Positions 2,441 to 63,968 of a stretch of DNA of 64,000 nt are shown here, in pieces. A model generated the notes under the pieces. That model was not told where the DNA came from. It did no database searches and saw nothing but the letters and a program-made list of their open reading frames with translations. Both the position numbers and the translations under genes were made by a program. Position 1 is the stretch's first letter; every line of letters starts with the position of its first letter. The DNA lies in the NCBI GenBank assembly GCA_021469345.1, contig GCA_021469345.1_3049.1; one strand, 5' to 3'. This stretch comes from a phage.

Positions 2441-2736
2441 TTAAACTATCAGCAGTAATATTATCTATTGGACTTCTAGTTGGTTGTTCTACAAAGCCTC
2501 TAGAAGTAAAGAAAGAAACAGTTCATCCTAATTGGCCTGTACAAATAAAGTCATATGACGAAGCTAAACTATCTTGGCAAGTTAAAGTTATCGATGGTAA
2601 AGCTTGGGTCGGTATGCCATTTGAAGATTCCCAGGAATTTCGTATTTGGCTTAATGATGTAAAACGATATGTACATGACCAGAAAACTATGATATGTTAT
2701 TATCGTCAAGAGTTAAAAGAGGATAAATGTAAATGA
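2437..2736 (+). CDS. pseT.2: o-spanin (outer-membrane lipoprotein spanin subunit)
   Basis: Signal peptide with lipobox LLVG-C (MIKLSAVILSIGLLVGCS); ATGA overlap with upstream gene. Confidence 0.6.
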   Translation: MIKLSAVILSIGLLVGCSTKPLEVKKETVHPNWPVQIKSYDEAKLSWQVKVIDGKAWVGMPFEDSQEFRIWLNDVKRYVHDQKTMICYYRQELKEDKCK

Positions 2737-2957
2737 TTTCATGGCATCAATTTGAACATCTCAAAGGATTGATTTATGAATCCGAGATGGCTGCAATGAT
2801 TTATGGACGCCAGATTCAGCGATTAGAATCTTTACCTCCAACTAATGATGTTTTATTAGCTCAATCACGTGCTAATCTCAAAAATGAATATCAAAATAAG
2901 TGGGGTAAAGCATCTAAAGACCTACATGATTATATTCAATCATTGGTTGAGAAATAA
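2733..2957 (+). CDS. hypothetical protein (pseT.1-region ORF)
   Basis: ATG start overlapping upstream stop; 74 aa; compact same-strand packing. Confidence 0.5.
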   Translation: MISWHQFEHLKGLIYESEMAAMIYGRQIQRLESLPPTNDVLLAQSRANLKNEYQNKWGKASKDLHDYIQSLVEK

Positions 2958-2960
2958 TAA

Positions 2961-4168
<1,208 letters not shown>

Positions 4169-7505: not shown

Positions 7506-7527
7506 TTTCCAAAGATTGCATAAAGTT

Positions 7528-7560
7528 GTTTACAGTATGGTTCCTTTGTGATAGTATTAT
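7528..7560 (+). promoter_or_regulatory. T4-type early promoter
   Basis: GTTTAC 7528-7533 ... tgtgatagtattat. Confidence 0.5.
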
Positions 7561-7584
7561 TTTACACAAACAAAGGAGAATAAA

Positions 7585-7917
7585 ATGAAAACGATTAATC
7601 TGAACGCTGCAGTTAAAACTAAATGCTTCAATGGTAAATATGATGAAACTATGTGGTTCTTAATGGCAGTTGAAGGTGATATTATTGAAGTAGAAACAAC
7701 AGAAGGTATGGGAACAGATTTCACCTTTACAATTCAAGTTCATAATTTCTTTACTGGTTGGATTTATGAATTGAATACAGTAATCGTTGGAAAAATTGAA
7801 CAAAATGAATTAGGTGAATGGTATTATGTTACAGCTCGCCAACGTGCCGAACGCTTAATTGAGAAGATGAAAAAAGTTGGTAAACTTGACATGAAGCACT
7901 GGAAAGTAGTAAAATAA
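7585..7917 (+). CDS. hypothetical protein (30.x cluster)
   Basis: 110-aa ORF; SD AAGGAG. Confidence 0.55.
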   Translation: MKTINLNAAVKTKCFNGKYDETMWFLMAVEGDIIEVETTEGMGTDFTFTIQVHNFFTGWIYELNTVIVGKIEQNELGEWYYVTARQRAERLIEKMKKVGKLDMKHWKVVK

Positions 7918-60579: not shown

Positions 60580-61292
60580 ATGAAACTAATCTTTTTAAGT
60601 GGTGTAAAGCGTAGCGGAAAAGATACTACTGCAGATTTTATCATGAATAATTATTCTGCAGTTAAATACCAACTTGCTGGTCCTATTAAGGATGCACTGG
60701 CTTATGCATGGGGAGTATTTGCAGCAAACACTGACTATCCTTGCTTAACTCGTAAAGAGTTTGAAGGAATTGACTATGATCGTGAAACTAATTTAAATCT
60801 GACTAAATTAGAAGTAATTACGATTATGGAACAAGCATTTTGCTATCTTAATAGTAAAAGCCCAATTAAAGGTGTGTTTGTTTTTGATGACGCAGTTAAT
60901 TTCGTAGCATTTAACAAGATTGCTGACGTTATAAATAATATTGAAGATCAATGGTCAGTCCGTCGTCTGATGCAAGCCCTAGGTACGGATTTGATTGTTA
61001 ATAACTTCGATCGCATGTACTGGGTAAAATTATTTGCTTTAGATTATCTTGATAAATTTAACTCAGGTTATGATTATTATATCGTTCCTGATACTCGTCA
61101 AGATCATGAAATGGATGCGGCTAGGGCGATGGGTGCTACAGTAATTCATGTAGTTCGTCCTGGTCAAAAATCCAATGATACACATATTACAGAAGCTGGA
61201 TTGCCAATTCGTGATGGTGATTTAGTAATTACAAACGATGGTTCTCTTGAAGAACTTTTTTCTAAAATTAAAAATACACTAAAGGTACTATA

Positions 61293-61293
<1 letters not shown>
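60580..61293 (+). CDS. 1: deoxynucleoside monophosphate kinase
   Basis: 237 aa; P-loop GVKRSGKDT; SD GAGGAG; matches remembered T4 gp1. Confidence 0.9.
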
Positions 61294-61990
<697 letters not shown>

Positions 61991-62002
61991 TTTCACAAAG
62001 TT

Positions 62003-62035
62003 GTTTACACGTTGATGAGGTAGTGATACTATTAT
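62003..62035 (+). promoter_or_regulatory. T4-type early promoter
   Basis: GTTTAC 62003-62008 ... TGATACTATTAT; -10 inside inverted repeat tgatgag/ctcatca. Confidence 0.5.
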
Positions 62036-62062
62036 CTCATCAAAATTAATTAGGAAAATAAA

Positions 62063-62350
62063 ATGAAAACTTTCAAAGAATTTACTTCTACAACTACCCC
62101 GGTTTCTACTATTACTGAAGCTACTCTTACTTCTGAAGTTATTAAAGCAAATAAAGGACGAGAAGGTAAACCAATGATTAGTTTGGTTGATGGCGAAGAA
62201 ATCAAAGGTACTGTTTACCTAGGTGATGGGTGGTCTGCTAAAAAGGATGGTGCTACAATCATTATCTCTCCTGCTGAAGAAACTGCGTTGTTTAAAGCTA
62301 AACACATTTCTGCGGCACATCTCAAGATTATTGCTAAAAATCTTTTGTAA
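62063..62350 (+). CDS. internal protein (IPI-locus) with capsid-targeting-like N-terminus
   Basis: 95 aa; N-terminus MKTFKEFTST...ITE resembles the T4 internal-protein capsid targeting sequence cleaved by gp21; sits between 57B and the tRNA cluster. Confidence 0.6.
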   Translation: MKTFKEFTSTTTPVSTITEATLTSEVIKANKGREGKPMISLVDGEEIKGTVYLGDGWSAKKDGATIIISPAEETALFKAKHISAAHLKIIAKNLL

Positions 62351-62367
62351 TAAATATTTCACAAAGT

Positions 62368-62400
62368 TGTTTACATAGGGTTTTAGTTGTGATACTATTA
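62368..62400 (+). promoter_or_regulatory. T4-type early promoter
   Basis: Shares tttcacaaagttgtttaca with the 62003 promoter; -10 tgatactatta inside inverted repeat ataggg/ccctat. Confidence 0.5.
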
Positions 62401-62426
62401 CCCTATCAACTACCGAGGAGAATAAA

Positions 62427-62612
62427 ATGAAACGTTGTGAATTAATTCGAAATGTTGCTATTGCAATTTCTGCTTCCGCTTTTAGTTTTTCAATGTTTGT
62501 TGGATTTATATGCGGATTATTGACTACAGCAGAAAATGTTTTTTCACTTGTAGTAGCATTTTTAATTGGTTTAATCGCTATTGTTATGGATAAAATTTCT
62601 AAAGGTGAATAA
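62427..62612 (+). CDS. hypothetical small membrane protein
   Basis: 61 aa, two hydrophobic segments; SD GAGGAG. Confidence 0.5.
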   Translation: MKRCELIRNVAIAISASAFSFSMFVGFICGLLTTAENVFSLVVAFLIGLIAIVMDKISKGE

Positions 62613-63017
62613 ATGAATATTAACGAATATTATGTTTATGCTGGGGATTATGCAAATCCTTCTCATTTTGAAGGTAATTTAATACCTGATAGAGTTTTTA
62701 ATACTCCTTTTGAAGCGTGGAGTTGGGTTGAAAGTAAAAATGGATTTTCTTATCGTTATGTTGAAGTAACTGATTGGAAAGGAACTAAATATCCTAAAGA
62801 GCATTATTATGTAGACCCATCTAAAGTAAATTTTCTTTTGTTCGCAGGCGATAATTACTATCCTTGCGGTGGATATGATGATTTGATTGCGTATGCTGAA
62901 ACAGAAGATGAATTACGCCAAATTATTGAAGACAATAAATCAAAACGATTTGGCGATAGTTTTGACTGGTGGCAAATCGTAAATGCCCATACACATACTA
63001 TTGTTGATAAAGGTTAA
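62613..63017 (+). CDS. hypothetical protein
   Basis: 134-aa ORF, ATG overlapping upstream stop. Confidence 0.5.
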   Translation: MNINEYYVYAGDYANPSHFEGNLIPDRVFNTPFEAWSWVESKNGFSYRYVEVTDWKGTKYPKEHYYVDPSKVNFLLFAGDNYYPCGGYDDLIAYAETEDELRQIIEDNKSKRFGDSFDWWQIVNAHTHTIVDKG

Positions 63018-63019
63018 TA

Positions 63020-63307
63020 ATGATTCTTTATGCGAAAGTATCATCCATTGAAAATGGATATAAATATGATCAAGAAGCAGCTAAAGCCTTGATTGATGAT
63101 TATGGCATTTTAACATGTTTTGAAGTTGAAAAGGTTTACATTGATCGTTCATCTTCTCAAGTTAAATTAGTGAAGGAAGACCGTAAATTTAACACAGTTA
63201 ACTTTGATTTCTTTATTGAAACGGAAAAAGGTCCTCTTGAATATGATATTTTCAAGAATCCTTTGGGTCTTGAATGCATCGTAAATATGTATCAGCATAA
63301 ATGGTAA
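63020..63307 (+). CDS. hypothetical protein
   Basis: 95-aa ORF; SD AAGG. Confidence 0.5.
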   Translation: MILYAKVSSIENGYKYDQEAAKALIDDYGILTCFEVEKVYIDRSSSQVKLVKEDRKFNTVNFDFFIETEKGPLEYDIFKNPLGLECIVNMYQHKW

Positions 63308-63344
63308 ATATGCTTTAAGAATTATTTGTTATTATTAACTCATA
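63301..63344. repeat. ~45-bp near-identical repeat, copy 2
   Basis: Matches 6254-6298. Confidence 0.8.
63311..63340 (+). promoter_or_regulatory. middle-mode promoter (MotA box + -10) upstream of the tRNA cluster
   Basis: TGCTTTA at 63311-63317 then tattat about 12 nt downstream. Confidence 0.5.
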
Positions 63345-63404: not shown

Positions 63405-63477
63405 TGGGAATTAGCCAAGTTGGTAAGGCATAGCACTTTGACTGCTAGATGCAAAGGTTCGAGTCCTTTATTCCCAG
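63405..63477 (+). tRNA. tRNA-Gln (anticodon UUG)
   Basis: Cloverleaf by eye: acceptor tgggaat/attccca, anticodon stem tagca/tgcta, loop cuUUGac, T-loop GGTTCGAGTCC. Confidence 0.85.
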
Positions 63478-63896: not shown

Positions 63897-63968
63897 GGCC
63901 CTGTAGCTGGAAGGTTCAAGCAAGCGACTCATAATCGCCAGATGGTGGTTCAATTCCACCCAGGGCCA
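63897..63968 (+). tRNA. tRNA with CAU anticodon (Ile-type, as T4 tRNA-Ile, or Met)
   Basis: Acceptor ggccctg/cagggcc, loop cuCAUaa, GGTTCAATTCC; order Gln-Leu-Gly-Pro-Ser-Thr-Ile matches T4 tRNA subcluster 1. Confidence 0.7.

Follow-up and report, generated by a model that had tools for sequence, protein, structure and literature searches.

The internal proteins of bacteriophage T4 are made as precursors with propeptides of 10–19 residues, which direct them into the prohead core and are cut off by the gp21 protease (PMC9026906, PMC9958956). Internal protein I (IPI) is a component of the virion, with about 360 copies per head, and it is injected along with the DNA (PMC9958956, PMC9026906). Its mature form of 76 residues (IPI*) shields glucosyl-hydroxymethylcytosine DNA by inhibiting the two-subunit type IV restriction enzyme GmrS/GmrD (PMC3012670; also PMC9958956 and PMC12373910). 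A single-chain homologue of GmrS/GmrD escapes this inhibitor (PMC3012670). All three of the T4 proteins IPI, IPII, and IPIII inhibit enzymes of the GmrSD family, and each blocks a different variant, without cross-protection (PMC12373910). Also, as cited in PMC3012670 and PMC12373910, Repoila et al. (1994) described the IP locus as polymorphic with a conserved leader.

We compared with T4 a locus in a 64,000-nucleotide stretch of phage DNA (contig GCA_021469345.1_3049.1; the whole of it is "the window" below). An earlier note on this DNA had proposed that an open reading frame of 95 codons begins like the precursor of a T4 internal protein and that it sits where T4 carries ipI. From the sequence and from what is known of the biology of T4, we have very little doubt that the locus is ipI and that the phage is of the T4 type, in the genus Tequatrovirus, with vB_EcoM-UFV13 as its nearest relative. 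This finding is correct but ordinary. For T4, the literature already covers the ipI gene and the structure of its product, the targeting propeptide and its processing, GmrSD as the target, the variability of the ip slot, and both promoters, in work that dates from the 1970s to the 2000s, so the value of the comparison lies in annotation rather than in discovery. The remaining biology of this interval is in the roles of Trna.4, Trna.3, and Trna.2, which are conserved across many Tevenvirinae.

The ipI gene and its product

The gene, the parts of its product, and its upstream neighbor are as follows.

61535-61990, + strand: gene 57B (Pfam PF23474 Acb1, E 2.6e-60; full-length identity to T4 gp57B, 151/151 amino acids)
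62063-62350, + strand, stop codon included: ipI, internal protein I precursor, 95 amino acids (matches in T4, Pfam, PHROG, and the PDB)
62063-62119, + strand: capsid targeting propeptide, residues 1-19, MKTFKEFTSTTTPVSTITE (from the start of 2JUB and the comparison of leaders)
62120-62347, + strand: mature IPI*, 76 amino acids, calculated pI 9.0, 8.1 kDa (75/76 against PDB 2JUB)

The 95-residue protein is identical to IpI in the T4 genome record at 94 of its 95 positions. The sole difference that we detected is a conservative one, V66I (residue 47 of IPI*), and it is common to the proteins of phages vB_EcoM-UFV13 and HY01, both of which are 100% identical to the protein in the window. Among solved structures, the search matched a single entry, 2JUB in the PDB ("Internal protein I"); the full length of its chain A, 76 residues, aligns with our residues 20-95, and 75 of the 76 are identical (E 1.5e-44). 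The Pfam family IPI_T4 (PF11634, "nuclease inhibitor from bacteriophage T4") matches at 178.7 bits, against a curated cut-off of 25 bits, and over its full length (profile positions 1-76 of 76, E 2e-53). Finally, PHROG 4363 ("internal virion protein") matches with E 3.7e-48. Given the near identity to the T4 protein and these matches to 2JUB, IPI_T4, and the PHROG, the gene is T4 ipI itself and not a lookalike, and we found no evidence against this identification. The resemblance to a T4 internal protein that the earlier note saw in the N-terminus was therefore understated.

The surroundings of the gene are those of T4 as well. The order is 1-57A-57B-ipI-trna.4-trna.3-trna.2, followed by genes for tRNA-Gln, Leu, Gly, Pro, Ser, Thr, and Ile, so ipI lies between 57B and trna.4 and 5' of the tRNA cluster, which is where the earlier note had placed it. 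The cluster has seven tRNA genes; the first is at 63405, and they are the next features after trna.2. Across positions 61990-63340 (1351 bases), the DNA is 99.6% identical to phage vB_EcoM-UFV13, which is the closest genome to this locus, and 94.8% identical to T4. Thus, the likeness to T4 IPI extends to the length of the precursor, its 19-residue propeptide, its position between 57B and trna.4, and its early promoter.

The precursor begins with MKTFKEFTSTTTPVSTITE, which is identical to the leader of T4 IPI, and continues with ATL. This N-terminal capsid targeting leader ends in I-T-E, an instance of the (I/L)-x-E motif at which gp21 cleaves, and the motif abuts residue 20 of our protein (ATLTSE), which is the first residue of the solved chain. 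The 1985 T4 record (X03016) is in conflict with this 76-residue chain, as it marks a mature peptide of 80 residues, with cleavage after residue 15. Because of the length of the solved chain and the I-x-E rule, we favor cleavage after Glu19.

The earlier note had suggested aligning the protein with all three T4 internal proteins. Besides the match to IPI, there is similarity to the leaders of IPII and IPIII: MKTFKEF and MKTYQEF agree at five of seven positions, and all three proteins share an N-terminal capsid targeting leader with a processing site of the (I/L)-x-E type. The lack of similarity to targeting sequences that would have spoken against the note's proposal was thus not observed. In contrast, the mature parts of IPII and IPIII are unrelated to IPI in sequence, and their propeptides have 10 residues instead of 19. 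Their genes are at a different locus in T4, near gene e, which is outside of this window.

If the phage behaves as T4 does, then the propeptide would steer the precursor into the prohead scaffolding core, where the gp21 protease would cleave it after Glu19 (...ITE). About 360 copies of the basic 76-residue IPI* would remain in the head and would go into the cell with the DNA. Given that the protein is 99% identical to that of T4, we expect it to be packaged, processed, and injected in this way. In the cell, IPI* would bind and inhibit the type IV restriction endonuclease GmrS/GmrD (GmrSD), which would otherwise cut glucosyl-hydroxymethylcytosine DNA. For T4, the earlier note was right that an injected anti-restriction protein is encoded at this locus: IPI* inhibits GmrSD (PMC3012670, PMC9958956, PMC12373910). 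By analogy with T4, the form of IPI* with V66I probably inhibits the two-subunit GmrS/GmrD of E. coli CT596, and we predict that the phage should resist enzymes of the CT596 type.

The gene on the upstream side of the ip slot is relevant to defense too. 57B belongs to the Acb1 family of anti-CBASS cyclic-nucleotide phosphodiesterases, and so a second counter-defense gene lies directly 5' of ipI. (Relatives of 57B in RefSeq carry the label "RNA ligase.")

We also noticed two minor features of the flanking genes. The product of gene 1 (dNMP kinase; 60580-61293, 237 amino acids) lacks four residues, EGKE, of T4 gp1, and this deletion is common to UFV13. At 63897-63968, ARAGORN assigns a tRNA-Met (CAT), while the T4 counterpart is annotated as tRNA-Ile. 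A CAU anticodon can be modified so that AUA is read.

Promoters and hairpins

The signals that we located around these genes are listed next, in order of position.

60930-60937: late-promoter motif TATAAATA in gene 1, corresponding to PL1 of X03016 (placed by coordinate offset)
61991-62009, + strand: 19-nucleotide repeat TTTCACAAAGTTGTTTACA, copy 1, with upstream element and -35 hexamer (exact repeat)
62004-62032, + strand: putative early promoter PE2, for ipI; TTTACA, 17-nucleotide spacer, TG-extended TACTAT ("put. -35/-10 region (PE2)" in X03016; conserved in the alignment of phages)
62012-62043, + strand: predicted hairpin of 14 bp over the -10 region of PE2 (-15.5 kcal/mol and z -3.3 when 61991-62062 is folded)
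62357-62375, + strand: 19-nucleotide repeat, copy 2 (exact repeat)
62370-62398, + strand: putative early promoter PE1, for trna.4-trna.3-trna.2; TTTACA, 17-nucleotide spacer, TG-extended TACTAT (PE1 features of X03016)
62375-62406, + strand: predicted hairpin over the -10 region of PE1 (fold of 62357-62426, 70 nucleotides: -17.4 kcal/mol, z -2.3)
63059-63066, + strand: late-promoter motif TATAAATA inside trna.2, corresponding to PL2 (X03016 2911-2918, via the offset of the trna.2 coding sequence)
63311-63335, + strand: putative middle promoter PM2, 5' of the tRNA cluster; TGCTTTA, which resembles a MotA box, and a TATTAT -10 element (PM2 of X03016)

That two copies of an early promoter drive the region had been proposed before, and the two sites turn out to be PE2 and PE1 of X03016. 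The 19-mer TTTCACAAAGTTGTTTACA has exactly two perfect copies in the window, at 61991-62009 and 62357-62375, and a third copy with two mismatches at 7516-7534. By chance, 0.06 matches would be expected, and three or more were present in 0 of 100 shuffled sequences. Each of the exact copies is part of a site of the sigma-70 type, with an A/T-rich upstream element, a (G)TTTACA -35 hexamer, a 17-nucleotide spacer, and a TG-extended TACTAT -10 hexamer, and both sites lie where T4 has them annotated. A generic promoter scan was not enriched over shuffled sequences (8 found, 8.9 expected), so what supports these promoters is that the 19-nucleotide repeat is exact and that it is conserved in T4 and in phage vB_EcoM-fHoEco02. 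As starts of early transcription, both sites are termed putative in X03016, and we would describe them in the same way.

X03016 also annotates potential stem-loops over both promoters, and our folds recover them; the one over PE1 is given there as a potential terminator of IpI (feature 2213-2250). The arms of the two hairpins differ in sequence, and both hairpins span the -10 region.

Together, these signals suggest how the locus might be expressed. ipI would be transcribed early from its own promoter, PE2. It would probably be transcribed late as well. Such transcription would start at PL1, the TATAAATA motif within gene 1, and would make the protein available during prohead assembly. PE1, as the second copy of the promoter module, would drive the coupled genes trna.4, trna.3, and trna.2. 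PM2 was mapped onto the window by coordinate offset, and its position is correspondingly a prediction.

The third copy of the module is far from this locus. It consists of TTGCATAAAGTTGTTTACA and then TAGTAT after 17 nucleotides, within 7516-7590, and it lies 5' of an open reading frame that begins with MKTINLN at about 7586. This is probably another early promoter of the T4 type.

The genes between ipI and the tRNA cluster

Three genes follow ipI.

62427-62612, + strand: trna.4, 61 amino acids, two predicted membrane helices (61/61 identical to T4 Trna.4; PHROG 1692)
62613-63017, + strand: trna.3, 134 amino acids, two domains (85% identical to T4 Trna.3; PHROG 1411)
63020-63307, + strand: trna.2, 95 amino acids (92/95, or 97%, identical to T4 Trna.2; PHROG 2023)

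The coordinates and lengths that the earlier note gave for these three frames and for ipI are exact (62063-62350, 95 amino acids; 62427-62612, 61; 62613-63017, 134; 63020-63307, 95). It had left the three as unassigned. It is true that they have no assigned function, but they are named T4 genes: identities to T4 of 100% (Trna.4), 85% (Trna.3), and 97% (Trna.2), in the same order, identify them as orthologs of ORF2, ORF3, and ORF4 of X03016, with the same spacing and promoter. The genes are tightly packed, as the start codon of trna.3 abuts the stop codon of trna.4 and trna.2 starts 2 nucleotides past the stop of trna.3. (The "trna.2" of the SegB paper is a different open reading frame, in phage T2L.)

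The first frame was correctly described as a membrane peptide. Trna.4 has two hydrophobic segments, at about residues 10-35 and 33-58, with Kyte-Doolittle means over 15 residues of up to 3.0. Its only match in Pfam is to DUF7554 and is below threshold (14 bits, compared to a cut-off of 25). More broadly, our local libraries of Pfam and NCBIfam gave no significant match for Trna.4, Trna.3, or Trna.2; homologs of the downstream proteins do have Pfam assignments, PF26894 and PF27001, that were precomputed.

Trna.3 is identical to T4 Trna.3 in 116 of 136 aligned columns (85%), is two residues shorter, and differs mainly in residues 100-117. In the alignment of homologs, its N-terminal half is variable and its C-terminal half (residues 73-134; FLLFAGDNYYPxGGY...FDWWQIVNAHTH) is nearly invariant, and homologs with an identical C-terminal half bear different N-terminal halves. 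Trna.3 looks like a mosaic, with the C-terminal half joined to at least two unrelated N-terminal halves across phages. In Salmonella phage Melville, two small open reading frames, of 186 and 213 nucleotides, take the place of trna.3 (2601-3001 of the compared sequence), and these are apparently the separated halves.

The AlphaFold2 model of Trna.3 is mediocre (pLDDT 72.6, pTM 0.46), and Foldseek found nothing below E 0.6 for it in the PDB. In BFVD, its matches are uncharacterized phage proteins only, among them stand-alone C-terminal domains of 60-75 residues in phages of Staphylococcus, Klebsiella, and Erwinia. These searches gave no pointer to a function. The model of Trna.2 is unusable (pLDDT 50.8).

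What might these proteins do? Their N-termini are MKRCELI (Trna.4), MNINEYY (Trna.3), and MILYAKV (Trna.2). When all six reading frames of the window were scanned for the leader MKT[YF][QK]EF, ipI was the only place where it occurred. Since they do not have the targeting leader of internal proteins, they are unlikely to be in the virion. The sequences point to a small membrane peptide with two helices (Trna.4) and to two proteins that would be soluble (Trna.3 and Trna.2). Our guess, which we hold with low confidence, is that all three are early, non-structural accessory proteins that act on the host.

A more specific idea is that trna.4-trna.3-trna.2 is an early module for anti-defense or host takeover and that Trna.2 acts on, or is sensed by, DRT1, a defense system with a reverse transcriptase. 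The genes are tightly coupled behind an early promoter, they are near two known counter-defense genes (Acb1/57B and IPI), and T4 Trna.2 is one of only two T4 proteins that were enriched in pull-downs of DRT1 (PMC13275509). That enrichment is the only functional hint for the three genes. On the other hand, the authors of the pull-down study did not follow up this hit (PMC13275509), enrichment in a pull-down does not by itself show function, and searches for families, folds, and motifs gave no evidence of an activity for any of the three proteins. On balance, this idea is possible but unlikely. We are somewhat more doubtful about its fullest form, in which the module counters or is sensed by a defense system, Trna.2 interacts with DRT1, and the C-terminal domain of Trna.3 is a new effector fold. 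If it were true, then this widespread domain of about 60 residues (FAGDxYYPxGG...WWQIV) would be a new and small phage effector fold.

It is far less plausible that the three genes encode additional injected internal proteins or anti-restriction proteins, as parts of a hypervariable array of cassettes. They do adjoin ipI, and they lie behind a copy of its promoter module. Nevertheless, we reject this explanation, as none of the proteins has the leader, Trna.4 is a membrane peptide, and the genes are not variable in their presence: the downstream genes, including trna.3 and trna.2, keep their position before the tRNA genes out to Gelderlandvirus (Melville) and Marfavirus (Klebsiella phage Kpn BM7).

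The variable ip slot

The earlier note described the locus as hypervariable among T-even phages. This holds for the ip slot: by tblastn, ipI is in 292 phage records, compared to 764 for Trna.3 and 804 for Trna.2. It does not hold for the downstream genes, which are conserved well beyond T4. The hypervariability is limited to the ip slot, and trna.4, trna.3, and trna.2 are outside of the variable part.

For an example of an alternative, consider vB_EcoM-fHoEco02, in which ip5 and ip6 replace ipI between 57B and trna.4. These cassettes occupy the same slot and each has its own promoter module, hairpin included, on its 5' side, but their coding sequences differ from ipI, and the window has a single cassette of the T4 type. 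In fHoEco02 there are three copies of the module, one before each of ip5, ip6, and trna.4 (1650-2358 of the compared sequence). The repeated modules could be points of recombination at which ip cassettes are exchanged. Both the counts for the slot and the cassettes of fHoEco02 fit the published description of a polymorphic IP locus.

Given that ip5 and ip6 occupy this slot elsewhere and that ipI is in so many fewer records than its neighbors, one might imagine that our gene encodes a new and diverged T-even internal protein, T4-like in its leader only and aimed at another host defense, but this is ruled out for practical purposes, as the 99% identity to T4 IPI spans the entire protein, leader included, and 75 of 76 residues match the solved IPI*.

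Outside of the T-even group, we noticed a weak IPI-like match in Salicola phage SCTP-2 (MF360958.1, 55917-56093), with 39% identity over 61 residues and E 2e-4. This is a halophage of 440 kb and is far from the T-even phages.
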